A DNA stretch of 62,541 nt from an uncultured Bacteroidota bacterium. Its GTDB lineage: Bacteria; Bacteroidota; Bacteroidia; UKL13-3. The notes under the pieces are model-generated. The model made no database searches, was not told where the DNA came from, and worked only from the letters and a program-made list of their open reading frames with translations. Position numbers and translations under genes: made by a program. This document shows positions 6,829-48,500 of this stretch, one piece after another. The stretch spans positions 1-62,541 of the forward strand of contig CAILJQ010000115.1 of NCBI GenBank assembly GCA_903834625.1. Reading direction: 5' to 3'. Every line of letters begins with the position of its first letter. Position 1 is the stretch's first letter.

Positions 6829-8229
6829 ATGGATGGAAATGATTTTTTGGGGGAAGAAGTTACGAGTAACGTGCAACGTTATGAGAAAATGATCCGAAAC
6901 AAAACGCGGGATTATTTTGATGCAGAGGCTATTGAAGGAATTATTGACTACTACATTCAAACTGAGAAATTAAAAAGGGCATTAGAGGCAGTGGAGTTTG
7001 GGAAGGAGATGTACCCTATGAATGTAAACTTTTGGATCAAAAATGCTGAAATCTTAATTATTCTTGAAAAGTTTGAGGAGGCAATGGTAGAGTTGGATAA
7101 AGCGGAATTGTATGAACCATATAATCCAGACCTATTTATTTTAAAGGGTGAAATCTGTTTACATAATTTTAACCACGCCGAAGCAGAGGAGTATTTTCAG
7201 AAGGCTTTACTACATACTGATGAAAGACTAGATATGCTTTTTGAGATTGCTTATGTATATGATGATAATGGCTTGTTTCTTCAAGCATCACAATATTTTA
7301 AGCAAATTATAGAGCAAGAGCCAGAGTTAGAGCAAGCTTACTATGAATTGGCGCATTGTTACGATATGTTGCTACAATATGATGATGCACTTAAATACCT
7401 TAATGTGCTTATAGACATTGATCCATACAATGTGGGCGCATGGTATAATTTAGGTGTTACATATGGCAAAATGGAAAAGCATACAGAAGCAATTGATGCG
7501 TTTGATTATTGTCTTGCCATTGAAGAGGAATACACAGTTGCTCGGTTTAATAAGGCCAATGCTTTGGTTGAATTAGATAGGTTTGAGGATGCCATTGTAG
7601 AGTACCTTGAAGTAATTAAACAAGAAGGAGGCGATAGTATTTCTTATTGCAATTTGGCTGGTTGCTATGAGCGATTGGGTAGGATTTCTGAGGCAAGACA
7701 ACAATACAAAAAAGCAGCCCAATTAAACCCAAATCTAGCCGATGCTTGGTTTGGAATAGGTGTTACACACGATAAAGAGGGACAATACAAAGAAGCCCTG
7801 CAACACTTTAAACGCGCTTGTTTGCTTGAACCCGAAAATTGTGATTTCTTGTTGGTTTTAGCCGAGTGTGAATACAAGTTGGGGTTTATTAAGGAAGCAG
7901 AAGATATTTATGCCAAACTTATTGAGTTAGACCCTGGACTCATGGAGGCATATTTGGACTGGTCGTATGTAAAATACAAAGAAGGCCACCTGCATGAAGC
8001 TGTTGAATTGCTTATGGAAGGAATGATTTTAGATCCATTATGTCACCAATATTATTACCGATTGGTGGTATACTTATATGAGCTTGGCAAAACCAATGAG
8101 GCGCAAGGCTATTTAGAAAAAGGACTTCAGTTATTCTTCTCTGATTATTTTCTCATTTTTGAAATTGCACCTAAACTACGTAAAGTACAGGCAATTACAG
8201 ATGCGATTGAGGCCCATAGACCTAACTAA
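6829..8229 (+). CDS. Tetratricopeptide repeat protein
   Basis: Successive 34-aa TPR patterns (AWYNLGVTY...A..AFDYCLAI; AWFGIG...ALQHFKRA). Confidence 0.9.
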   Translation: MDGNDFLGEEVTSNVQRYEKMIRNKTRDYFDAEAIEGIIDYYIQTEKLKRALEAVEFGKEMYPMNVNFWIKNAEILIILEKFEEAMVELDKAELYEPYNPDLFILKGEICLHNFNHAEAEEYFQKALLHTDERLDMLFEIAYVYDDNGLFLQASQYFKQIIEQEPELEQAYYELAHCYDMLLQYDDALKYLNVLIDIDPYNVGAWYNLGVTYGKMEKHTEAIDAFDYCLAIEEEYTVARFNKANALVELDRFEDAIVEYLEVIKQEGGDSISYCNLAGCYERLGRISEARQQYKKAAQLNPNLADAWFGIGVTHDKEGQYKEALQHFKRACLLEPENCDFLLVLAECEYKLGFIKEAEDIYAKLIELDPGLMEAYLDWSYVKYKEGHLHEAVELLMEGMILDPLCHQYYYRLVVYLYELGKTNEAQGYLEKGLQLFFSDYFLIFEIAPKLRKVQAITDAIEAHRPN

Positions 8230-10536: not shown

Positions 10537-12795
10537 ATGAGTACTTTAAAAGAAGATGCCTTAAAATATCATAGCAAAGGCAGACCAGGTAAAATTGCAG
10601 TAGTTCCTACAAAACCAACCAATACAAAACGCGATTTAAGTTTAGCATATTCACCAGGTGTAGCCGAGCCTTGTTTAGCAATTGCTGAAAATCCTGAAGA
10701 TATTTATAAATATACTGCCAAGGGAAATTTGGTGGCGGTAATTAGTAATGGAACAGCCGTACTCGGATTGGGAGATATTGGTCCGGGTGCATCTAAACCA
10801 GTAATGGAAGGGAAAGGCGTTTTATTCAAGATTTTTGCTGATATAGATGTTTTCGATATTGAAATAGATACCAAAAACACAGAAGATTTTATTCAAACTG
10901 TAAAGAATATTGCGGGAACTTTTGGAGGGATAAATTTAGAGGATATTAAAGCCCCAGAGTGTTTTGAAATTGAGAGACGACTCAAAGAGGAATTGAATAT
11001 TCCAATTATGCACGACGATCAGCATGGAACGGCTATCATTACTGGAGCAGCGTTGTTAAATGCTCTTGAACTGGTTGGAAAGAAAATTGAAGACGTTCAA
11101 GTTGTTTATAATGGAGCAGGGGCTAGTGCCATTTCTTGTGCGAGAATCATGAAAGCCTTAGGTGTGAAGGCTGAAAATTTAGTGATGTGTGATAGCAAAG
11201 GAGTGATAAGAGCTGATAACCCAAATTTGGATGATATCAAAAGGCCTTTTGCCACCTCCAGGGATTTAAAAACCCTTACTGATGCCATGAAAAATGCAGA
11301 TGTGTTTGTGGGGCTTTCAAAGGCAGATGTGGTAACACAAGACATGTTGCGAAGCATGAACAAAGATTGTGTTGTTTTTGCCTTAGCAAATCCAAATCCT
11401 GAAATTACCTATGAATTAGCTACGGCTTCGAGGCCAGATATTATCTTAGCTACAGGTAGAAGTGATTACCCAAACCAAGTAAACAATGTGTTGGGATTCC
11501 CTTATATTTTTAGAGGCGCATTGGATGTACGTGCCACTAAAATTACAGAAGAAATGAAATTGGCTGCAGTATATGCCTTGGCCAATTTAACAAAGGAGCC
11601 AGTACCAGAGATTGTTAATTTAGCTTATAACGAAAGCAATGTTACTTTTGGAAGGCAATACATTATTCCAAAACCAATAGACCCTCGTTTGATAACCACT
11701 GTATCTCCTGCTGTAGCAAAGGCTGCTATGGAAAGTGGTGTTGCCAAAGAACCCATTACAGATTGGGATAAATACGAACAACAATTGCTGAATAGATTAG
11801 GCAAGGAAAGTAATTTCATTCGTGCTATAACAGATAAAGCTAAGTTAAATCCGAAACGCGTTGTTTTTTCTGAAGCAGAGAATTTTAAAATTTTAAGAGC
11901 TGCTCAAATTGTTAAAGATGAAGGAATAGCTATTCCAATTTTGATTGGAAACAGGTTGCGTATTGAGGCCATTATTCGTGAGAATAACCTCAATTTAAAA
12001 GATGTTTCTATTGTTGATCCTATGGAGGATGAACACAAACGTAATGCTTTTGCCGATGTGCTGTTTAGAAATAGACAAAGAAACGGACTTACCCTTCATG
12101 AGGCCAAAAAACTCATGACAGACAAACACTATTATGCCCCAATGATGGTTGAAATGGGTGAGGCTGATGCCATGATTAGTGGATTAACCAAAAACTACCC
12201 AAGTACCATTAGACCCGCCTTACAAATTTTAGGAAAAGAAGATGGAACAGATGTAGTAGCTGGCATGTATATAATGCTTTCGAAAAAGGGGACTCTGTTT
12301 TTTGCTGATTGCTCGGTAAATCAGAGTCCTGGCGAAGATGAATTGGTAAACATTGCCTCTTTGGCATACAAAGCAGTAAAAAAGTTTAATATCAATCCTC
12401 GTGTTGCCTTGTTGAGCTATAGCAATTTTGGCTCGGCCAAGGGCGCCGATCCAGTGAAGATGTCGAATGTGAGGAAGAAATTAAAGAAGGATTATCCAAA
12501 CATGATTGTAGATGGAGATATTCAGGCAAATGTTGCCTTGAACCAAAAGCTTTTGAAGGAGAATTTTCCTTTCAGCGAATTGGTGGGAGAGCCTGTAAAT
12601 ACGTTTATTTTCCCATCTTTATCCTCTGGAAATATTGCATATAAAATGTTGCAAGAATTGGGGGCAGCAGAAGCCATCGGTCCTGTTTTATTAGGATTGA
12701 AAAAATCTGCCCATATCCTTCAGTTGGGTAGTAGCATTCGTGAAATTGTAAACATGGTTACCATTGCAGTGGTAGATGCCCAATCCAAAGAATAG
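10537..12795 (+). CDS. maeB: NADP-dependent malic enzyme with phosphotransacetylase-like domain
   Basis: [45 protein letters not shown], followed by a C-terminal PTA domain. Confidence 0.95.
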
Positions 12796-12797
12796 AA

Positions 12798-13163
12798 CTA
12801 ATTAGAACAACTGCAAATTCTAATAAACTCCATTCCTTTCCTTGCTTTTATGCAAGAATAACTTTGATCTAATTTCCATTTATTGGGGTAATCACTTGTA
12901 TTACTGCTTGATTTTAACACAATATACTTGTCTTGGACTTCCCATGTGCCTTTAACTTCTACTATTTTTTTGGGGTTGGTTTCGTTGTAGTATACAAATG
13001 TGTTGTCATCGTTTAGCTTTAGTTCTAGTACTGAATTGTGGCCATTTGTTGGTTGTTTTGCCTTTTGTCCGGATGAATAGGTGCCATGCGTTGGATTGGA
13101 TTTTGGCTCGCCTGCAAATGCTTGGGTGCAGACAAAAAGAAAGCTAATAAATAGGTATTTCAT
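12798..13163 (-). CDS. Small secreted hypothetical protein (lipocalin/NlpE-N-like beta-strand pattern, Cys-rich C-terminus)
   Basis: Signal MKYLFISFLFVCTQAFA from 13163; GTY..LxLNDDNTF..GTW pattern; ends ...SCIK...ICSCSN. Confidence 0.6.
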   Translation of the reverse strand: MKYLFISFLFVCTQAFAGEPKSNPTHGTYSSGQKAKQPTNGHNSVLELKLNDDNTFVYYNETNPKKIVEVKGTWEVQDKYIVLKSSSNTSDYPNKWKLDQSYSCIKARKGMEFIRICSCSN

Positions 13164-13307
13164 AGGTTTTATTATTGAATGAAGGTAGCGGTAATTTTGT
13201 TTTAAAATTGTCATATTCCTTTTTGTGTTTATCATTAGGTAACTATTTTATTTGATAGATTAAACTATTCCTGATTTTTGATATCAAAGCCAGAATTGTT
13301 TTATTTC

Positions 13308-13988
13308 ATGCGTACCAACAAATTGTTATGTTTTTTTCTCTTCCAGATTGCTTTTATGGCTTTGCCATTAAAATCAATTGGGCAGGTAAAACTATCTTTT
13401 GTTCCTACAATTGGTGGCGCTGAAATTTCTCTTGATAAAGAATATCTGTTAAAGGAATTGGGTAAAGTAACATTCACTAAACTTAAGTTTTATTTTGGCT
13501 TAGCAGGTGATACCTCCTCCAAAAGTTATTTCCTCATAGACCTTGAAAAAAAGAGTAGTTGTTTAGTAGAATTTCCACTTCAAAAAAATAGTCTGAATAA
13601 TGAATTTGCCTTTTGGTGTGGAGTAGATAGTTTTACCAATACCTCTGGAGTATACATGGGGGCTTTGGATCCATTGAATGGAATGTATTGGACATGGCAA
13701 AGTGGCTATATAGGTATAAAATTAGAAGGGCAAATTCGTTCAATGAATGGAGATTCTGTTTCGTTTGAATATCATTTAGGGGGTTATCAAAACCCTTTTT
13801 TGGTTTGTTATCCTGTAGCATTTAAAAACACAAAAAGTAGCGACCTTCTAGTAGGGTTGGATTTGGGAAGGTTTATATCGTTTGCATATCAAAATTTCCC
13901 TAAAAAAGTTATGACGCCTGGCCAGGATGCCTATTTATTAGGGAAAATATTTTCAGAATCTTTTTACTTATTGGATAATGAAAAATAG
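13308..13988 (+). CDS. MbnP-family protein (WxW motif)
   Basis: GALDPLNGMYWTWQSGYIGIKLEG and YHLGG motifs; overlaps the start of the diheme gene; ATG at 13308 preferred over TTG at 13278. Confidence 0.72.
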   Translation: MRTNKLLCFFLFQIAFMALPLKSIGQVKLSFVPTIGGAEISLDKEYLLKELGKVTFTKLKFYFGLAGDTSSKSYFLIDLEKKSSCLVEFPLQKNSLNNEFAFWCGVDSFTNTSGVYMGALDPLNGMYWTWQSGYIGIKLEGQIRSMNGDSVSFEYHLGGYQNPFLVCYPVAFKNTKSSDLLVGLDLGRFISFAYQNFPKKVMTPGQDAYLLGKIFSESFYLLDNEK

Positions 13989-14988
13989 AGGTTTGCTCTT
14001 ATTTATTGGGGTTGTTTGTTTAATGAGTTTTATCGTTAAAGATACCTATCAAATTCCAAAGGCTTGGCCTGAACCAATATATCCCATTGGTAAAAATGAA
14101 CTTACAATTAACAAAGTTTATTTAGGAAGAATATTGTTTTACGACCCAATTTTATCGGTCAATCACACTGTTTCTTGCGCAAGTTGTCATTCTCAATTTA
14201 ATGCCTTTACCCATGCCGACCATGCACTGAGCCATGGTATATATGATAGTATAGGAACAAGGAATTCACCAACCTTAATGAATTTGGCTTGGCAACCCTA
14301 TTTTATGTGGGATGGTGCCATCAATCATTTAGACATGCAAGCCTTGGCACCTATAAGTCATCCCAAAGAAATGGGTGAAAGCTTAAATCATGTGCTTCAA
14401 AAATTGGGCGCTTCAAAAAGATATAAGAGTTTGTTTTATAAGGCTTGGAAGGATTCAATTCCTACTACTGAAACACTACTTAAATCGCTGTCATCGTTTA
14501 TGCTTACTTTGGTAAGTAATCAATCTAAATACGACAGTGTGCAATTGGGTTTAGTTGCATTCACAGATCAAGAGCAAAGAGGTTATGCCTTATTTAAGAA
14601 ACATTGCAATAGTTGTCATACAGAGCCACTATTTACTAATTATCAATTTGAGGCAAATGGCATTAAGGTAAATGCTCATCTTAACGACTTTGGAAGGTAT
14701 GCAATTACCCATCATCCAAAAGATTCATTTAAATTTAAAACCCCCACTTTAAGAAACGTTGAATATTCTTTTCCTTATATGCATGATGGAAGGTTTGAAT
14801 CATTGAATGAGGTGATACAATTTTATGCTTCTTCTTCCTCTATTGGTGACAAAACAAAAGGTCGAACACTACATTTAGATGCTAAAGAAAAAGTGGACCT
14901 GCATGTTTTTTTGCTCACTTTAACCGATAAACAATTTTTGTTCAACCGCTCCTATGGGTATCCTATGGAGTTGAATACAAAAGAATAA
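13978..14988 (+). CDS. Diheme cytochrome c peroxidase superfamily protein, MbnH/MauG-like
   Basis: Two CxxCH (CASCH, CNSCH); LGRILFYDP, RNSPTL, FMWDG, FKTPTLRN, PYMHDG; signal peptide. Confidence 0.88.
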   Translation: MKNRGLLLFIGVVCLMSFIVKDTYQIPKAWPEPIYPIGKNELTINKVYLGRILFYDPILSVNHTVSCASCHSQFNAFTHADHALSHGIYDSIGTRNSPTLMNLAWQPYFMWDGAINHLDMQALAPISHPKEMGESLNHVLQKLGASKRYKSLFYKAWKDSIPTTETLLKSLSSFMLTLVSNQSKYDSVQLGLVAFTDQEQRGYALFKKHCNSCHTEPLFTNYQFEANGIKVNAHLNDFGRYAITHHPKDSFKFKTPTLRNVEYSFPYMHDGRFESLNEVIQFYASSSSIGDKTKGRTLHLDAKEKVDLHVFLLTLTDKQFLFNRSYGYPMELNTKE

Positions 14989-15028
14989 TTTACTCTTTAT
15001 AACACCTAAAATAAATACAAATAAAATA

Positions 15029-16393
15029 ATGAAAAAATCTATCCTACTCTGCACATTTGGCTTATTGGCTTTGTGTTCATTTGCTCAAACCAATCCTGCT
15101 ATTACAAGCTGGATTCAAAACACCACAGGCATTAAAGGCCGACATTATGTAAAGAATAACAGCACTGCAATTAACGACAATGACTCGGCTAATGTATTAG
15201 GAGTGTATTATTCTGCTACATCTGTTTATATAAGAGCAAATGGGGTTCCTGGTTATGTAACTGGACCATTTTTAGACGGTAACCCATCCATTACAACCAG
15301 TCAGAATGCCATCTTTAAATTTCCTTTGACCCCAGTTAAAAATACGGGAACAGCAACAGCTACTACTGGTGGCAATATTGGAATTTTTATCAATGGTGTT
15401 GCTTTGTTTGATTACCGTGATGGTGTTTCTTGGCAGAATTCATCAAACAGTTTAAAAGGCGGGCCATTAGGCGGAACGGGCGACAATGTTTGGAATAGAG
15501 ATGCAGTGGTTGCTGAGCGAGGTGGTTTTGATTGTGCAAAGGGACATCCAGCGATGGGAAATTACCACCATCATCAAAATCCTAGTGCATTTAAATTAGA
15601 TTTAACTGTCATATCTACTGTTTGTAATTTGTATGATGCAGATGGATTGTATGTGATAGATAGTAGCAAACATTCGCCACTCATAGGCTTTGCCTATGAT
15701 GGATTTCCAATATATGGAGCATATGCTTATAAGAATGTAGATGGAACTGGAGGCATTGTGCGCATGAAATCTAGTTATACTTTACGAAGCATTACCCAAA
15801 GAAACACCTATTTTAATGGTAACACTGTAACTGCAGGTCCGGTTGTGAGTACAACCTATCCATTGGGATATTTTAGAGAAGATTATCAGTATACTGCGCC
15901 AACTGCTGCAAATCCAGATTACTTGGATGAACACAATGGAAGATTTTGTATAACTCCAGAATACCCAAATGGCATTTATTGTTATTTTGCTACCGTTGAT
16001 GCCAATTGGAATTCTGCCTATCCTTATGCTGTAGGTCCCACTTTTTATGGTATTAGAAGCAGTGCAAAAGTTACCAGTATTACAGAATCTGTTACAAGGT
16101 ATATGCCAAGTACAACAGCTATTTCTGAGAAGGGAAAAGAGGCGTTAACCTTTAACGTTTTTCCAAATCCAGGTAATGATATATTGGCTATTCAAGCAGA
16201 TGGATTGCAACAAAACAATTTGTTGGTTGAACTATTTGACATGCAAGGAAGGTTATTAATAAGCAGCAATTTGTTTCAAGGTAGTACCATCACCTATTTA
16301 GATACAAGAGGTTTATACAGTGGTGAATATATATTAAGGCTGAGTAACGCACAAACAGTAGTTAGCAAAAAAGTAATTATTGCAAAAGACTAA
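15029..16393 (+). CDS. YHYH-domain protein with T9SS type-A C-terminal sorting domain
   Basis: GHP..G.YHHH, HSPLIGFAYDGFPIYG, LDEHNGR..TPEYPNG; CTD FNVFPNP...LFDMQGR...SGEYILRL...KKVII. Confidence 0.85.
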   Translation: MKKSILLCTFGLLALCSFAQTNPAITSWIQNTTGIKGRHYVKNNSTAINDNDSANVLGVYYSATSVYIRANGVPGYVTGPFLDGNPSITTSQNAIFKFPLTPVKNTGTATATTGGNIGIFINGVALFDYRDGVSWQNSSNSLKGGPLGGTGDNVWNRDAVVAERGGFDCAKGHPAMGNYHHHQNPSAFKLDLTVISTVCNLYDADGLYVIDSSKHSPLIGFAYDGFPIYGAYAYKNVDGTGGIVRMKSSYTLRSITQRNTYFNGNTVTAGPVVSTTYPLGYFREDYQYTAPTAANPDYLDEHNGRFCITPEYPNGIYCYFATVDANWNSAYPYAVGPTFYGIRSSAKVTSITESVTRYMPSTTAISEKGKEALTFNVFPNPGNDILAIQADGLQQNNLLVELFDMQGRLLISSNLFQGSTITYLDTRGLYSGEYILRLSNAQTVVSKKVIIAKD

Positions 16394-17064
16394 TTATTAA
16401 AATACCTTTTTATGGCTACCACATGTGATAGTATGACCAATGGAACTATAACTGTTGGTAGCCATATAAAAGGGAATTGCGAAACAGCTATATTAGGTTG
16501 GTTCAGACCGAATTGTTGAAAGGGTGTAGGCAAAGAGAGTACCGCAATACTAACAATTGTTAAAACAAGGAAAAGGCAAATGATGTTCCAAATGACCATA
16601 GGTTTTCCTATAGAGGAAGATTGTTTTTTGGCCCCAAATATTATTATCCCAAGTGCACTAATACCCGAAAGTATATCAAAATTTAATCCTTCAAAGGTCA
16701 TTTCTTTGGGAACCATTTTTTGGATGAAAAGTAAGTACAGTCCAATTTCAACAGGAATCCTTACTACATGAATAGGTAACAGGTGTTTTGTTTCTATAGT
16801 ATCTAACCATTTTCTACCAGATGGGCTTCCAAGCAGGTAAATAAAAATTGCCAGATTGGGTAATAGAATTAGAATGGGTCGTGGAGGCGTGCTGTTAGTT
16901 TGTTCATAGAAACCACTCCATGCTAGCAAAGCTTGAGTAATAGTGATGAACAAAGTAAGCCCAAGAATTTTGATACTTTTGTTGCTTGCTTTATATATCC
17001 AACCAATACAAAAAAATGTAATAAGGATAAAAAGAATAGGGGTTATTACTTCAATAGATTTCAT
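16390..17064 (-). CDS. Hypothetical integral membrane protein (about 6 TM)
   Basis: Hydrophobic segments; HVVRIPVE, NFDILSG and FPFIWLP motifs; stop overlaps the YHYH stop. Confidence 0.75.
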   Translation of the reverse strand: MKSIEVITPILFILITFFCIGWIYKASNKSIKILGLTLFITITQALLAWSGFYEQTNSTPPRPILILLPNLAIFIYLLGSPSGRKWLDTIETKHLLPIHVVRIPVEIGLYLLFIQKMVPKEMTFEGLNFDILSGISALGIIIFGAKKQSSSIGKPMVIWNIICLFLVLTIVSIAVLSLPTPFQQFGLNQPNIAVSQFPFIWLPTVIVPLVILSHVVAIKRYFNN

Positions 17065-17067
17065 TTT

Positions 17068-17478
17068 TTATTCCTTATTTATGGTTTCAATCCAAAGGCG
17101 GAATATTTGGGTTAAACCGCTTTGAAAACTTGAGAGGTTTGCCTCTTTTGAAATAACAATCATTTTTCTTGAATCAGGAAAGTTGCCTTGTAACAATCCT
17201 GTTGGATCGTTAATTCTTGCGCCATTTGGGAAGATTAATCTCAATTCATCTTTTTTCACAAGATTAATTACACATATATCTCTTTTATATTCTTTGGGGT
17301 TAAAAGGTGGCATTTCGCCTGCATAAAAAAAGGAGGGAGAATTCCATTTCACCTGCTCTTGTATGTTTGGGTCAACCCCTAAGATAATTGTTCTTAGCCC
17401 ATTTATCATTGGTTTCATTGGATGAGATAAGGCATTCATGTAATCCGTAATCGTTATGTTTGAATTTTTTGTTGCCAT
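17068..17478 (-). CDS. DUF1801 (YdhG-like) domain protein
   Basis: LRTIIL...IxEQVKWNSPSF...LIFPNGA...LLQG...RK pattern. Confidence 0.78.
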   Translation of the reverse strand: MATKNSNITITDYMNALSHPMKPMINGLRTIILGVDPNIQEQVKWNSPSFFYAGEMPPFNPKEYKRDICVINLVKKDELRLIFPNGARINDPTGLLQGNFPDSRKMIVISKEANLSSFQSGLTQIFRLWIETINKE

Positions 17479-17504
17479 AGAAGTTGGGGAGATTTGACCT
17501 AAAA

Positions 17505-17512
17505 CAAAAGTA
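17505..17512 (-). promoter_or_regulatory. -7 box (TACTTTTG) for the DUF1801-membrane protein operon
   Basis: Exact TAnnTTTG 26 nt upstream of the ATG. Confidence 0.5.
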
Positions 17513-17588
17513 TCAGATTTTCGTCAGAATTAGACTCATTGACAATTGTGGTTAAACTTTTGCGTTTTTGAAATATCACACTAATACT

Positions 17589-17663
17589 ATGAACAAAAAT
17601 AATTTTTACATCTTCAGGGCATCAGTAATCATTGCCTTATTGGTAATGGCCCTGGCATATTGA
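17589..17663 (+). CDS. Possible 24-aa hydrophobic peptide
   Basis: ATG..TGA ORF MNKNNFYIFRASVIIALLVMALAY upstream of the HupE/UreJ gene. Confidence 0.25.
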   Translation: MNKNNFYIFRASVIIALLVMALAY

Positions 17664-17714
17664 TCCTAATCAAGGAGCATTTTGCCTAATGATTAATTCC
17701 ACTATTTTTGAGCC

Positions 17715-18281
17715 GTGGAGGAAATTAGGCTATATATATTGCTTGGATTTGAGCATGTGTTTCCATTTGGTTCAGACCACGTGCTGTTTATTGTTAGCTT
17801 ATTCCTTTTTAAAAGTAATTGGAAAGACTTGTTGGCGCAGTCTGTTGTATTCACCCTTGCCCACAGTATCAGTTTGTTATTAGCCCTATTAGGCTTACCC
17901 TTTCCAAGCTCACTTTGGGTTGAACCAATAATTGCTTTATCCATTGTTTATACTTCGTTAGAGAACGTATTTCCTAAGTATTTTGTATTGAACCGATTGG
18001 CCATAGTTGGAATATTTGGCTTATTCCATGGGTTAGGATTTGCGGGAGTTATTCAGCAATTATTGGGTGGTTCTGAAAGTTTATTTATTCCTTTATTTTC
18101 ATTTAACCTCGGCATAGAAGCTGCACAACTATTTGTACTGCTTCTATTATGGGTTATGATACATACAAGCGGCTTATCCAAATTAACTTTGTATCAAGAA
18201 AAACTTAGCAAAGCAATGTCATTGGGCATTGGTTTGATTGCCAGTTATTGGTTTTTAGAAAGAATTGGACATTTGCTTTAA
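17715..18281 (+). CDS. HupE/UreJ family (HupE_UreJ_2) membrane protein, putative metal permease
   Basis: GFEHV..GSDHVLF, FTLAHSISL, VEPIIALSI, FGLFHGLGFA, FNLGIE; GTG start. Confidence 0.85.
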   Translation: MEEIRLYILLGFEHVFPFGSDHVLFIVSLFLFKSNWKDLLAQSVVFTLAHSISLLLALLGLPFPSSLWVEPIIALSIVYTSLENVFPKYFVLNRLAIVGIFGLFHGLGFAGVIQQLLGGSESLFIPLFSFNLGIEAAQLFVLLLLWVMIHTSGLSKLTLYQEKLSKAMSLGIGLIASYWFLERIGHLL

Positions 18282-41671: not shown

Positions 41672-44600
41672 TTATTGAATACTAATTTTTGATACAAAAT
41701 AATCTTCTCCTGAAATAACCTTCACAAGGTATTCGCCTGTGGTAAGATTCGATAGATTAAGAGAGTATTTGTTGTTATTCTCAATAGAAAGGTAAGATTC
41801 AGAAATTGCTCTTCCCGTAATATCATAAATGGTTATTTTAGCATTTTCTTTTAGGGCTTTGCTAAAGCTTATGGTTAGGTTACCATCTTTAGAAGGATTT
41901 GGATAAACCATAATGGATCCTGTACCTTTTACTTTTTGAATGCCCACCGGATTGAGTGTTTTGTTATTTGCAATAGCAAATGAATCTTTAAGATACAATG
42001 GACCTAGGTCTGTATTGTTATATTCAAAAATGGCGATTTGGTAAACAGTATTTGGTTCAAGATTATAAACCAAAAGAGAATTGCCACTGCCTGCATAAAC
42101 AATTCTAGAGCCTTCTAATAAACTGTCACCAGCACCAAATTCATTATTAGCCAAATAGGTAAGTCCATTAGCAGGAAATTCACTCACGGCAATGTCTTTT
42201 CTCATTGCAACCAATCTGTTTTGACCGTTTCCTACCGTCCATGAGAACTCAAAACTATCTTGATTGATGGTTGTGAAAGTTATGTTTTTGGATGGAATGG
42301 TAGGGAAGTTAAGATTGGTTAAGGTTTGGCGATTGGCAGTTGGAAATCCATTTGATTGGTAGTTTGTGGTTAACCCACTTCCATTAAACTCCAAAACGGC
42401 AAAGTGATAAACAGTGCTTGGATCAAGGCCTGATACAGTTACTTGGGTGCCTGTTCCAACATATACCACTCTTTCATTGTTTGAAAGGAATGACGATGAA
42501 CCATTAAAAGTATTATCTGTAAAATAAGTTTCACCATCAAGAGGTAAGGTACTAACTGGAGCACCCATAGAAGCAACTACAATTCTTCCAGTACCGTTTC
42601 CTGAGGTCCAATTTAATTGCATTGAATTGGCAGTTACATTGCTAATGGCCAATGCTGTTGCGCTATTTGTTGGCTCAGCCGCAGGTGTTAAAGTATTTGC
42701 ACTTGCAGATGTACCATTGCTAAGAACTCTGGTATAAATGCCATTTCCATTGTATTCAAATATTTTTACATGATACGTAGTTGAATGTTTTAAACCCACC
42801 ACAATCACTGAATCTTGGGCACCACTAAATACAATAAAATTGTTATTGCCTAAATCATCACCACTACTAAAAGTAGAATTTGCATTAAGAGAAACACTGT
42901 CTGCAGGTATTTTATCAATGGCTGAATTTTCTGCCATAACTACATAACGAGCCGAGCCATTTCCGTTTGTCCACTTGATGGTCATTTGGTTGAGCGTAAT
43001 ATTACTGAATTGAATGTTTGAAGCAGCAAGGGTAGGAGGTGTATATCCTGCGATGGTTGTTTGACTACTTCTAGCTGGATTGCTAATTAAATAATGTGAA
43101 TTTGCGCCAAACCCGTTGTATGCATAAACAGCAAAATGGTAAGTTGTATTTGGGTTCAAACCGGTAACTGTAAATGTGGTATCTGTACCCGTATAAAGCA
43201 CAAAACTTGAGCCCAAGCTTTCTCCTGAACCAAATTGTAAATTGGCATTATATCCTAAACCATCGCCAGGAATCGTATCCACCGCAGCGCCTTCTTTTAC
43301 CAAAATAATTGAGTTTGTTCCATTTCCTTTGGTATATCTAAAGCTTAGGGAATTAGGTGTATTTTGAACCAGGGTTAAATTGCTGGCCTGAATAGTTGGT
43401 GTTTCTACATTTAACTGAATAGCTGCAAAATTTTCTTTTCCAGTTTCATTTAAGGCAAATGCACCACTAATATAAAGTCTATTACCTTGGTGTAACATTT
43501 TTCTTACCGAGCCTGATTCAAGTTTTACAGGAAAATTCACTTCTGTACTGTTGGAAGTTTGAAAGCAAGTAAATCCTGTAGCTATATTGGTATTGAAATT
43601 ACCACCTACATACACGAATCCTGCATTTTGGTCGAGGCTATATACTTCTCCGCTTAATTGTGGCGACCATGAAAGTATATTCGCTGAGGTGGAAGTATCA
43701 ATAGCTGCTAAATAATTCCTCTGTGAAGTGCCAATTTGGGTGAATAATCCTCCAATTAGAATGGCATTGCCATTTGGGGCCATATCTGTGATGGTAGAAT
43801 CTGCATTTATGCTCCAAGATCTTAAACTTCCATTGTTAGATAAATCAAAAGAGGCTATATTTTTTCTTGCAGAACTACCTATTAAATTAAAAGTTCCCAA
43901 AGCATATAATTGGGTTTGGTTCAACAGAAGTTTTTTAACAGGGCCATCAGGGTTAGGGTTCCAAGTTGTCATGGCACCACTGGTAGAATTTACCAAAGCC
44001 AAGTAGTTTCTTTCATCTGTACCAAGGTGAGTAAATTCACCTGCCAAGTATATGGTATTGCCTAAAATGAGTACATCGTTCACAGCGGCATCGCAATTTG
44101 GATTCCAAGAATTTGGTAAAAACAAGGCGGTATCTACAATGGCAACTCCTACCCTTGAGGTATTATTGATGTTATTAAAATTTCCTGCTACCATTAAATC
44201 ACTGCCAATAATTTCCATGTCATAAATGGGGCCATCAATTTCCATGCTGCTTGCTACAGGAGTACCTGTTTCATAATCTAAGGCGATAAAATTATTTGCG
44301 TTAACACCGCCATAACTGCTAAATGAGCCTGTGGAAATAAGCACATCTCCTGCCCAAAGGAGGTTATTTACTTCGCCATTTGTCTTAGGTAAATTTCCGG
44401 TTAATGTTCCATCAGAAATGGTGATGGCAGCTAAGTATGGTTTTTGGTTGGTACCAATAGACGAGAAAGAACCCCCAAGGTATAAATTGCCATTTTTTAT
44501 TTTTAGCGATTTAATTTCAGAATCAACTCCAGGGTTAAATGAACTTACAACAGCTGCGGTATATAAATTACATGCAGCAAGATTGCTTCTAATTTGAATA

Positions 44601-45536: not shown

Positions 45537-48500
45537 TTAGTTATTGAAGATGAGTTTATAGTTTTTCAACTCATTACCTTTCATTACCTGAAGGGTATAG
45601 AAACCAGCAGGCATTCCTTGTAAGTCAATAGTTTTTCTTACCATTCCAGCTTCAAAAGAATTGGCATTTTCTTGGTATACAACTTTTCCTGAAAGGTCAA
45701 CTATGGTAAATGCAATCAATTGTTCTGCCTCGTTTATAAGTTCAACGGTTATATTTCCATTACTTGGATTTGGCCAAACATTTAAGTAGTCATCTGTTCC
45801 AAGTTTAGTTGATCTGTTTTCTTGAGGAGGTGGGGCGGAAACATTCGAAGCAGAAAGAATGATATCTTGGATTTGAACAGCTGAAAGTGCTCTCTTATAA
45901 ATTCTAACATCGTCAATGCTTCCATTCATGTTATAAGAGTTGACAAAAGGGCCAGTAACCGATGATCCAATTGCACCTATTGTATAGTGTCTATTGGCTA
46001 AATCAATGGTTTTATTGGCAACAAATGCACCTGTTGTTCCAGCTACACTTCCATTAAGGTACAGTCGTGTTTGAATTCCATTTTCATATGTTAAGGCAAC
46101 ATGGACCCAGCTACCTGTTGGGTATGAATATATTGGACTTGCAGCAATACCAATACAAACACCAGTATTGTCTGTGAACTGTCCAAACAAACTTTGGTCA
46201 GGAGTTATTTGTAAGGAGAATGCCATGCCGGTTGCTGCATCAGAACCAATGATTGCTCGATCTACCGCATTTGCAGAACCCGTAAAGCTGGCTACTTTTG
46301 CCCAAGCCATTACTGTAACCTCGTTTAGGTTATTGAAATTTGAATTATTTGAAATATTAAAACCTACTCTTCCAGTTCCACTAAAATCATAAGCACTAGA
46401 GGGTGTGCCATTTCTATCATTTATTGAGGTAACAGCATTTGGAGACCCTGGTGATACGATGGTTCCATTAAAACCATTTCCACTAAAATCGTTTGCATTT
46501 CCATTAAACCTATGCCATGAAATTAGGTCGGCAGAAGGATCGCTGTTGTAGGTGCTGCCAATATTATGAACAAATACATCCCAGTTTCCATTAGGTGGAA
46601 GAGGTTGTACTTTTGTGTTTACGTCAAAGCCACCAAAACTAGCTGTTGTGTTAAAATATCCAGATATGTATGTGTTATTAGGAATAATAGCAAAAATACC
46701 TCGAGCGGCATCATCTAAAGGTCCACCAAATCTTCTCGCTACATTTAAAATACCTGTATTAGAATAGATAGCCACAAAAATGTCTAAGTTTCCAAGTGAG
46801 GTAAGGGTTTGTGCATCAAAATTTGCTAATCCACCAAAGCTACCAGTGATAAATACCTCTCCATTGGTTCCAAGATCAACACCTGAAGTAATATCTTGTG
46901 AAGCGCCACCTTGTTGTTTTACCCACTGAACAGTTCCATTGGCTCCTGTAATTTTAACCAAATAGCCATCCGTTATACCCGCAGAAATGAGGCTAGTTGA
47001 CCCAAAAGCAACGGTATTGCTAAATGCGCCCACCATATATACATTTCCGTTTGCATCAATATCTAGGAACATTCCTTTATCATCTCCCGTGCTACCATAA
47101 GCATTTGCATACTGAGGATTTCCTGATGCATCAAATTTCACCAAAATGGCGTCTGCACTGCCTGAGTAGGTTGAATTCACAGTACCAAAGGAAGCTGTAC
47201 CTTTTATCTCACCACAAGCATAAACATTATTATTTTGATCTGCCCCAATACCAAAGGCAAAATCGTATCCAGGAGATCCACCACCTTTAGCCCAAACCAA
47301 TGTACCAGAAGGGTTATATTTGGCAATTAATAAATCACTGTTACCATTGGTGGTAATAGAAGTGCTTGTACCAGAGAAATTGGTTGTTCCAGAATGGAAG
47401 CCACCAACCAATAGATTTCCTGTGCCATCCATGGCAAGGGCGTTTGCAACATCTTGACTGCTGCTGCCAAAAGATTTAGCCCAAATAGCATTACCTGAAC
47501 TAGAGTATTTGGCAATAAAACCGTCATCAGAACCCGCAGAAACAAGTGATATGGTATCAAACGTTGCGGTATTTCTGAACGAACCAACAAGGTATGCATT
47601 GTTACTTGCGTCTAAAACAACTGCAGCAGAGGCATCGTCACCTACACCACCTGCTAATTTTACCCATAACAAGTCTCCCGTTGAATTATATTTGGCTAAG
47701 AAAATATCATTTGAATTGGCCACGAGTTCAGTTAATCCAAAGTTTACATTTCCACGAACAGTGCCGGTTACAAATACATTTCCTGAAGCATCAACAGCAA
47801 TAGAACCAGAAGCATCGGCTTCCGAACCTCCGGCTGTTCTTGGCCAGTTTGCAGGTGCAGTTTTTACAGTGTATGTGCAAGGCCCAGTGGTTTTATAGGC
47901 AATTTCAGTTGTACTGGTGATATTGTTAAATAATGAGTTGTATTCATAAACGGCGAAATGATAATTGGTATATGGCATTAATCCAGTTATTTCTACTGAG
48001 TTACCTGTATTGCCATTGTATACTACTTTTTGTCCTGAGCCTAAATCTGTGCCTAATGTAAAGTTTGTATTTGCTGGGTAAGTAACATTATCAGCAGGGA
48101 CGAAACTTACTGGTAAAGATTGGCGCATAACAACAATTCTATTACTTCCATTTCCATTGGTCCATTTGAAACGAATGGAGTTATTATTCTCAACTGATTT
48201 AGGGTTATAAGCACTTACGCTTGGGGGTTGTAGGTTAGCATCTGTCTTTTTGGAACCAACTAAAATTGGGTTAGTTAAATAGGCAGCAGAGTTTAAGTTT
48301 GAACCTATTATGTTGTATTCAACAACCATATAAGTATAAAATGTGTTAGCTAATAAGCCTGTAACTGGAACATTATTTCCAATTCCATTGTATAATACTT
48401 TGGCATAATAATTTCCAGTCAGTCCATTTAATGTGCCTCTTACCATTAATTGAGAACCACCTGTACTTGAGAAATTAGAATTTGCCGAATAAGACATTCC

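Follow-up and report, generated by a model that had tools for sequence, protein, structure and literature searches.

The window analysed in this study is a stretch of 62,541 nucleotides from an uncultured Bacteroidota bacterium of the UKL13-3 lineage (GenBank assembly GCA_903834625.1, contig CAILJQ010000115.1). Its forward strand carries, at positions 13278-16393, a core of three genes whose products are an MbnP-like protein, a di-haem enzyme that is MbnH/MauG-like and a YHYH protein that bears a sorting domain for type IX secretion (T9SS). This trio is confirmed as a conserved unit that recurs across Bacteroidota, and a separate MbnH lineage travels with YHYH. The new element is the constant YHYH partner on a known copper-protein pair, of which the window holds the minimal form. 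We hold tentatively, and with some doubt, that the trio represents, in its minimal form of three genes, a Bacteroidota envelope module in which MbnP, provided with a kynurenine by MbnH, would bind Cu(I) and serve YHYH before type IX export. A sequence-only reading of this DNA had proposed a methanobactin-independent copper module composed of the same pair and the YHYH protein, accompanied by a Cys-tailed secreted protein and a HupE/UreJ membrane protein. The conserved trio and the independence from methanobactin stand, while the two accompanying proteins are judged to lie outside the module.

The conservation of the trio was surveyed by scanning one genome per species, in which at least 606 stretches encode a YHYH relative. 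The best 80 of these loci, with at most 7 kb on each flank, were read by tblastn with the window proteins and by clustering of open reading frames (ORFs). MbnH is located on the YHYH strand in 61 of the 80 loci. The MbnP-MbnH pair stands immediately upstream of YHYH in 47 loci, upstream with at least one inserted gene in 9 and immediately downstream in 5, and the flanks of 10 loci are too short for judgement. The proposal that the pair and the T9SS-tagged YHYH protein form a unit is thus borne out by this survey, together with the dedicated MbnH clade described below. Because the order MbnP, MbnH, YHYH recurs in other species, the arrangement is far beyond chance. The source genome (3.38 Mb in 309 contigs, 97.4% complete) contains 140 Por_Secre_tail matches at E<=0.001, and its two other MbnP/MbnH pairs have different neighbours, as would be seen if one of the genome's T9SS cargo genes (about 140 in 3.4 Mb) simply happened to lie beside such a pair. 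This explanation is hardly credible, being contradicted by the recurrence of the same order in 47 of the 80 loci, in different species and several orders, and by the clade that MbnH forms on its own.

The 80 loci are the closest relatives and are mutually non-independent, so an even sample of 301 Bacteroidota genomes was also used. YHYH is present in 40 of these genomes and MbnP in 70. When the YHYH match lies in a frame of 438-722 amino acids (aa), which is the case in 14 of the 301, MbnP occurs anywhere in the genome in 13 of the 14, compared with 70 of 301 overall. The distance between MbnP and YHYH is at most 2.5 kb in 7 of these 14 long-YHYH genomes, and an eighth (locus L150) has only MbnH directly upstream. 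Of the six others, L149 has a contig that stops about 700 bases past YHYH, so a pair may still lie downstream there.

The tree of MbnH comprises 101 sequences: 58 are YHYH-linked, 40 stem from further MbnP loci in Bacteroidota, and three belong to this genome, with the window's copy counted among the 58. All 58 YHYH-linked MbnH fall into one clade with a support of 97 in the Shimodaira-Hasegawa-like approximate likelihood ratio test (SH-aLRT). The clade has one additional row, from a genome whose YHYH gene is 36 kb off on the same contig. The source genome has three MbnP/MbnH pairs, and the two that lie outside the window are also outside the YHYH-linked clade. Furthermore, five genomes with YHYH but no adjacent pair were searched, and all five have a stand-alone MbnP-MbnH pair elsewhere. 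The stand-alone MbnH of these genomes are 52-58% identical to that of the window and 63-70% identical to their best match, a YHYH-linked MbnH; for the other MbnH paralogues in the same five genomes the value is 43-49%. Four of the five are included in the tree output, where their nearest neighbours from other genomes are YHYH-linked rows. As to the 40 other Bacteroidota MbnP loci, the MbnP gene is directly followed by MbnH in 37 of them. Most of these other pairs have no adjacent YHYH or T9SS cargo, and the YHYH link therefore belongs to one lineage of the pair and not to the family. The idea that Bacteroidota MbnP/MbnH pairs generally precede T9SS cargo was rejected, as a sorting-domain ORF adjoins the pair in 2 of the 40 loci (L099 and L110).

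The MbnP-like gene (13278..13988, forward strand, as are all features of the trio) encodes 236 aa when counted from a TTG codon. The ATG at 13308 (MRTNKLL...) is the likelier start and is then followed by a signal-peptide-like stretch. The protein is a member of PF20243 (E 2.2e-26, 93.3 bits against a cut-off of 27, residues 35-199). Its central motif is M136-Y-W138-T-W140 (MYWTW, 13683..13697, translation checked), in which a Met precedes the WxW motif, and H166 (13773..13775), which aligns with the His of 'HVG' in the solved MbnP 7L6G, is a candidate copper ligand. An alignment of 50 MbnP sequences has M136 and W138 throughout, with a conservation of at least 90% for W140 and H166; H166 is likewise conserved in a second alignment. 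The AlphaFold model of the protein has a predicted local distance difference test (pLDDT) value of 87.6, and the modelled structure has the fold of 7L6G. The six best Foldseek matches are all chains of 7L6G (E 2e-7 to 1e-6, template modelling score 0.48-0.51, about 17-18% identity), and the next match has an E-value of 0.027. Searches of the PDB sequences with the single protein and with the 50-sequence profile found no entry. A broader profile of 45 Bacteroidota sequences reaches 7L6G with E 3.7e-7, and in this profile alignment M136, W138, W140 and H166 correspond residue for residue to GMAWNW (G-M-x-W-x-W) and to the His (H-x-G) of 7L6G. Residue W149 of the 7L6G chain becomes W174 with an offset of 25 residues, which we infer, and Kyn174 of MbnP is, according to the available text of the review PMC11951088, the WxW motif's first Trp. 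By this alignment W138 is the expected kynurenine precursor, and the Met, Trp and His of 7L6G would act as ligands of the copper site.

The gene of the di-haem enzyme (13978..14988, 336 aa) overlaps the MbnP gene by 11 nt. The protein matches CCP_MauG of Pfam with E 2.4e-51, and its matches among PDB sequences are 3o5c (4.7e-39), MbnH 6e1c (2e-34) and MauG (about 1e-21). The first haem motif, CASCH at residue 67 (14176..14190), and the second, CNSCH at residue 210 (14605..14619), are invariant in 101 of 101 MbnH sequences. W111 (14308..14310) belongs to 'MWDG', which is common to the aligned di-haem enzymes; among the MbnH sequences, this position is Trp in 55 of the 58 that are YHYH-linked and in 36 of the 43 others. 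Y283 (14824..14826) aligns with the Tyr of MbnH 6e1c and with a Met in the peroxidase 3o5c, and Tyr is found here in all 58 YHYH-linked and in 41 of the 43 other sequences. We take this Tyr/Met position to be that of the second haem's axial ligand.

The YHYH gene (15029..16393, 454 aa) follows after a spacer of 40 nt (14989..15028) and encodes a protein with a C-terminal sorting domain of T9SS type A. The YHYH domain occupies residues 96-328 (15314..16012) and matches PF14240 over its full length (E 7.4e-59, 199.4 bits against a cut-off of 25). The segment HPAMGNYHHH (15545..15574) contains the His triad H173, H180 and H182. In 42 diverse YHYH proteins, these three residues and D224, D285, D300 and W155 are all invariant, which agrees with the His triad and Asp pointed out by Iyer et al. 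in the accessible part of their article (PMC7824862). The family is large, with 2170 representative clusters counted at E<=0.001. The window's protein sits in a strongly conserved group: 6644 of 8000 scored candidates are relatives at E<=1e-5, and the best 120 listed all combine PF14240 with PF18962 at 68-100% identity.

The model of YHYH residues 20-370 reaches a pLDDT of 92.5 and a predicted template modelling score of 0.92. Compared with solved structures, Foldseek gave 0 PDB matches at E<=0.001, and the best Z found by VIA-align among 48,161 chains was 2.9. There was no usable match in the ESM Atlas, and the PDB profile search matched the sorting domain only. The predicted structure is thus a confident fold with no solved relative in these collections. 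The sorting domain (16157..16381) is recognised by PF18962 (Por_Secre_tail, E 6.7e-12, 46 bits against 27) and by TIGR04183 (E 5e-12, 45.6 bits against 23), and both scores exceed their cut-offs. The YHYH protein is accordingly named here as predicted type A cargo, and the genome encodes the secretion system itself, with SprA_N scoring 540 bits on contig C19.

In the mechanism that we tentatively prefer, MbnH would be a periplasmic MauG-type di-haem enzyme that oxidises W138 of its partner MbnP to kynurenine. The kynurenine would complete a Cu(I) site of MbnP, in which M136 and H166 are the other candidate ligands. The dedicated MbnP/MbnH lineage would serve YHYH, which is very conserved and has a putative metal site of three His and Asp. 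YHYH itself would cross the inner membrane by Sec, fold in the periplasm and leave through the type IX system, and MbnP would most likely pass copper to it in the periplasm, prior to export. In the relatives, MbnP would likewise supply a neighbouring exported multicopper oxidase. The copper theme of the sequence-only reading is plausible, as the Met, Trp and His of 7L6G are kept and an exported multicopper oxidase is present in 18 of the 80 related loci. Complex prediction of YHYH 20-370 with MbnP 35-236 scored 0.00 in both runs, which counts neither way. A bolder version, to which we give rather little credence, makes YHYH an exported copper enzyme that belongs to a new class and has an unsolved fold; its three-His site would be loaded or built in the periplasm by the dedicated kynurenine-MbnP/MbnH pair.

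Several observations, from the scores of the pair to the company of YHYH, weigh against the copper-supply reading. The MbnP-like protein scores 22.6 bits in the equivalog model TIGR04052, against a cut-off of 140, with only residues 110-169 (the WxW region) matching, and the MbnH-like protein scores 196.1 bits in TIGR04039, against 362.85, though this is its best NCBIfam match. The deposited name of 7L6G includes 'four-Cys motif protein'; no Cys column is conserved among the 50 MbnP sequences, and the mature part of the window's protein has three Cys. The pair is absent from 9 of the 80 loci in spite of at least 2.2 kb on both flanks, that is, from 9 of the 70 with adequate flanks. One Bacteroidota family has a YHYH protein of about 340 aa in 15 of 49 genomes and MbnP in 0 of 49. 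In addition, at L150 (3725-6157, genome G206), MbnH stands immediately before YHYH and no MbnP-like stretch is found in 10.8 kb.

This last locus, the only case of MbnH without MbnP seen with intact flanks, would fit a direct modification of YHYH by MbnH, in which an oxidised-residue cofactor is installed in a MauG-like manner and MbnP is a second substrate or an adaptor. YHYH has invariant Trp residues (W155), and in the relatives MbnH is more similar to the window's protein (50-59% identity) than MbnP is (29-47%). On the other hand, no MbnH without MbnP was found among the 80 loci where the upstream flank suffices, and the six loci with MbnH only (L023, L040, L046, L050, L056 and L065) have at most about 1.3 kb of contig upstream of YHYH. 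MbnP also retains its own Met/Trp/His site, and the invariant Trp of YHYH is kept in lineages without MbnH as well. We consider direct modification improbable.

The other points against the copper-supply reading come from YHYH itself. YHYH proteins occur in phages and diatoms, as stated in the accessible parts of PMC7824862 and of preprint 10.1101/2024.06.08.598090, and Iyer et al. predict a Zn-binding hydrolase and not a copper protein (PMC7824862, available text). A search for fusions among longer YHYH relatives gave 120 listed proteins. Of these, 21 carry a sulfatase domain, which is of the Cys type with the formylglycine motif CSPTR in 5 of 5 inspected, and 7 carry an arylsulfotransferase; neither is a copper enzyme. 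None of the 120 is a fusion to MbnP or MbnH. A multicopper oxidase is fused in 1 of 120, representing one protein cluster, and this fusion fits the copper theme. Both domain orders are seen in the fusions (proteins P0296-P0343, P0316/P0317 and P0351). In 15 of the 80 loci, the neighbours of YHYH include a Cys-type sulfatase that bears a sorting domain. The fusions and neighbours place YHYH among exported enzymes for sulfate esters or phenolics, with copper enzymes alongside. In the bolder version above, they would point to an action of YHYH on sulfated or phenolic organic matter outside the cell. This company leaves the choice of the YHYH metal unsettled.

YHYH could accordingly be a Zn-type hydrolase, or another metal enzyme, that attacks extracellular sulfated or phenolic polymers, with the adjacency reflecting shared envelope or surface regulation and no contact with MbnP/MbnH. 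The prediction of Iyer et al., the sulfatase and arylsulfotransferase fusions, the T9SS sulfatase neighbours and the presence of YHYH without MbnP in other lineages are all in its favour. Such a separation from the pair is difficult to reconcile with a separate MbnH clade that accompanies YHYH and is kept elsewhere in 5 of 5 genomes after loss of adjacency, with MbnP in 13 of 14 long-YHYH genomes against 70 of 301 overall, and with the isolated position of the window's trio, which is bound together by the 11-nt overlap and the 40-nt gap. This alternative is unlikely in our estimation. As separate observations, the source genome has two arylsulfotransferase-like T9SS proteins, on contigs C271 and C167, and in the MbnP-less family the YHYH gene of about 340 aa lies among rpsB, tsf, pyrH, frr and smc (L139-L147), a setting that is uninformative on metal partners.

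The relatives also carry additional genes and a promoter-like motif. A cassette of an extracytoplasmic function (ECF) sigma factor, a small membrane protein and a periplasmic protein of about 150 aa precedes MbnP in 26 of the 80 loci; the small membrane protein is the anti-sigma factor, and the protein of about 150 aa has no Pfam or NCBIfam family. The multicopper oxidase of 18 of the 80 loci is CueO-like and has a sorting domain. CueO is its best NCBIfam match at 352 bits, below the cut-off of 525, and the gene lies between MbnH and YHYH in the closest relatives (L007-L010) and also in L027. A CxxC redoxin of about 200 aa is found in 15 of the 80 loci. The ECF-type promoter-like motif consists of a CGAAGGA-like word, 17-18 nt and CGTCTAA, and over 963 kb it occurs 59 times on the strand of YHYH and 21 times on the opposite one. 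In 17 of 79 loci it stands upstream of YHYH at a distance of no more than 130 nt, compared with about 0.4 expected by chance by our own arithmetic from these counts. The 17 loci are L013, L014, L018, L034, L038, L044, L055, L059, L062, L065, L066, L069, L070, L074, L079, L083 and L086, with the motif near 6950-6990 in most. A CGAAGGA-N17-CGTCTAA motif in the MbnH-YHYH spacer would give YHYH its own sigma-dependent start within the operon. The motif also precedes MbnP in 5 of 53 loci, and it is found before anti-sigma, f4 and oxidase genes. In the window, positions 12700-16500 contain no CGTCTAA and no CGTC[TC], and the MbnH-YHYH spacer is without an ECF-type promoter. The window lacks the ECF cassette, the promoter, the oxidase, the redoxin and the sulfatase, and so holds a bare three-gene core, apparently outside ECF control.

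Such genes would suit a role in copper stress defence or surface scavenging, in which YHYH would be a surface protein that binds or sequesters copper and MbnP would buffer or receive periplasmic Cu(I); in the relatives, the CueO-like oxidase would remove Cu(I) and the whole set would be under a metal-sensing ECF switch. The best match of the oxidase to CueO, the ECF cassette before the pair in 26 of 80 loci and the CGAAGGA-N17-CGTCTAA motif before YHYH in 17 of 79 point in this direction, as do the methanotroph surface copper-binding kynurenine proteins MopE and CorA, which adjoin di-haem enzymes according to the available text of PMC3621798. However, the copy in the window has neither an ECF promoter nor an adjacent oxidase, and YHYH proteins from different orders share about 70% identity and an enzyme-like set of invariant His and Asp, a conservation that exceeds the need of a simple metal sponge. 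A defensive or scavenging function is a possibility of low probability.

Two small contigs of the source genome touch on these relatives' genes. On contig C126 (L087 1-3517, minus strand, 3.5 kb), there is a cassette of ECF sigma factor, anti-sigma factor and a 143-aa periplasmic protein, with three AAGGA-N15-CGTCTAA copies, one each before the sigma and anti-sigma genes and one before a TonB-dependent receptor (CarboxypepD_reg and Plug). The receptor runs past the contig end, and a SOUL haem-binding gene lies upstream. Contig C242 (L088 1-1993, 2 kb) holds a T9SS multicopper oxidase and a redoxin of about 185 aa, both cut by the contig ends, and this is the pair that stands beside YHYH in relatives.

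Among known systems, the MbnP/MbnH pair of Methylosinus trichosporium OB3b (7L6G, 6E1C) is reportedly the subject of papers by Manesis et al. in 2021 and Kenney et al. in 2019. The window resembles it in the adjacent order of P followed by H, the MbnP fold, GM-x-W-x-W and the His, the two CxxCH motifs and the Tyr position. The window pair differs from it in having no methanobactin genes, no adjacent TonB transporter and no conserved four-Cys motif, in falling below both TIGRFAM equivalog cut-offs, and in having a constant third partner, the T9SS-exported YHYH. Pairs of the MbnP/MbnH type are widespread outside methanobactin operons, as the available text of PMC3621798 states. In MopE and MCA2590 (SACCP) of Methylococcus capsulatus and in CorA and CorB of Methylomicrobium album, a di-haem MauG-like enzyme is likewise placed beside a surface or secreted kynurenine copper protein (PMC3621798 and PMC11951088, available parts). 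The secreted protein itself bears the kynurenine in those systems, whereas in the window the WxW motif is borne by a predicted periplasmic MbnP-like protein and the exported protein is YHYH, with its unsolved fold. The action of MauG on pre-methylamine dehydrogenase is similar in the di-haem family (PDB match about 1e-21), the Tyr position and the long-range oxidation of Trp in a partner (PMC11951088, available part). It differs in that the window has no methylamine dehydrogenase genes and its enzyme is nearer to MbnH and peroxidases by sequence. The CnrYXH-type cassettes of ECF sigma factor, anti-sigma factor and periplasmic sensor are likened, by arrangement only, to the cassette that precedes the pair in 26 of the 80 relatives, and the window has none.

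As for PF14240, the full-length match of 199 bits and the conserved His triad and Asp place the window's protein with the family that is called 'enigmatic' by Iyer et al. 2021 (PMC7824862) and that the N-Zinclopedia preprint (10.64898/2026.10.18.759936) treats as a 'blank-slate' site of three His, both in their available text. The accessible parts of those papers give no genomic partner for it, whereas in the window it has the MbnP/MbnH partner and a T9SS tag, and its relatives have sulfatase, arylsulfotransferase and multicopper oxidase fusions. In a literature search, YHYH was found together with MbnP or with sulfatase in no paper, although the neighbourhood analyses and supplements of the key MbnP papers may list PF14240; judged by title and abstract, the papers found for YHYH with copper have no bearing on this. 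The biological role of the methanotroph MbnP/MbnH is still unsettled, and YHYH is a large orphan family without solved structure, assigned metal or function, so that the trio offers a testable link to copper handling. With a conserved MbnP/MbnH lineage that evolves separately and is tied to a single exported YHYH protein, both problems become experimentally approachable, and the window is the simplest version for cloning, with three genes and no regulator. If the bolder version is true, the trio would constitute the first metallochaperone route on record for cargo of type IX secretion. Work on the trio would also show how such cargo obtains its metal.

The ORFs, the WTW motif, the 11-nt overlap, the 40-nt gap and the C-x12-CSC tail named in the sequence-only reading were recovered exactly, and hidden Markov model searches agreed with its gene families (MbnP 2.2e-26, CCP_MauG 2.4e-51, YHYH 7.4e-59 with Por_Secre_tail 6.7e-12, and HupE_UreJ_2 1.6e-37). 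Its claim of core-gene flanks also held, with a malic enzyme/PTA fusion upstream (by Pfam) and IF-2 downstream, past the HupE gene. The absence of a TonB receptor was found as claimed, since the window between 9 and 23 kb contains no such receptor, no MbnB/MbnC biosynthesis genes and no MbnT transporter, and the independence from methanobactin extends to the 97.4%-complete genome, in which no match to the MbnB family (PF05114) was found. The whole stretch is covered by a contig of 63,908 bases from run X1, probably the source, in which 5 letters differ. Three other DNA runs gave short pieces, none of which bridges the MbnH/YHYH junction.

The Cys-tailed small secreted protein (12798..13235, minus strand, 145 aa) ends in C-x12-CSC, is divergent from the trio and has its likely start at 13163 (MKYLF...). 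Its sole Pfam signal is a sub-threshold match to NlpE_N (E 0.0092). The HupE_UreJ_2 membrane protein (17715..18281, forward strand, 188 aa, PF13795 1.6e-37) lies beyond two genes on the minus strand, which encode a 224-aa membrane protein without family (16390-17064) and a DUF1801 protein (17068-17478), and it is therefore outside the transcription unit of the trio. The membership proposed for the two former proteins was not upheld: a relative of the Cys-tailed protein stands beside YHYH in 1 of 80 loci (L010), and a relative of HupE/UreJ is found within 7 kb of YHYH in 1 of 80 (L016). DUF1801 (1 of 80) and the 224-aa membrane protein (0 of 80) were rejected as partners in the same way. In L016 (12089-14411), the lone HupE_UreJ_2 relative among the 80 loci is positioned directly upstream of an exported oxidase-redoxin pair on the same strand.

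The other MbnP/MbnH pairs have layouts of their own. The commonest one in loci L089-L128 is a familyless ORF of about 125 aa, MbnP, MbnH and an ORF of 304-325 aa, and the last ORF is present in at least 11 of the 40 loci; 1 of 3 such ORFs tested matches Phenol_MetA_deg, an outer-membrane barrel family. The two extra pairs of the source genome are located on contigs C270 (L005 6865-10784) and C9 (L006 6163-10776). One of them is followed by a CUB- and PKD-domain protein whose length is at least 659 aa; the other has nadA/nadB on one side and, on the opposite side, a Crp regulator, a YHS-domain protein, DoxX/MauE and MsrAB. The MbnH matches of L133 and L138 (genome G304) have one in-frame TAA each and may be pseudogenes or assembly errors. 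Elsewhere in the window, two further T9SS sorting domains are found on the minus strand at 41678-41908 and 45549-45779, where they form the ends of open frames of 1297 and 2020 aa.

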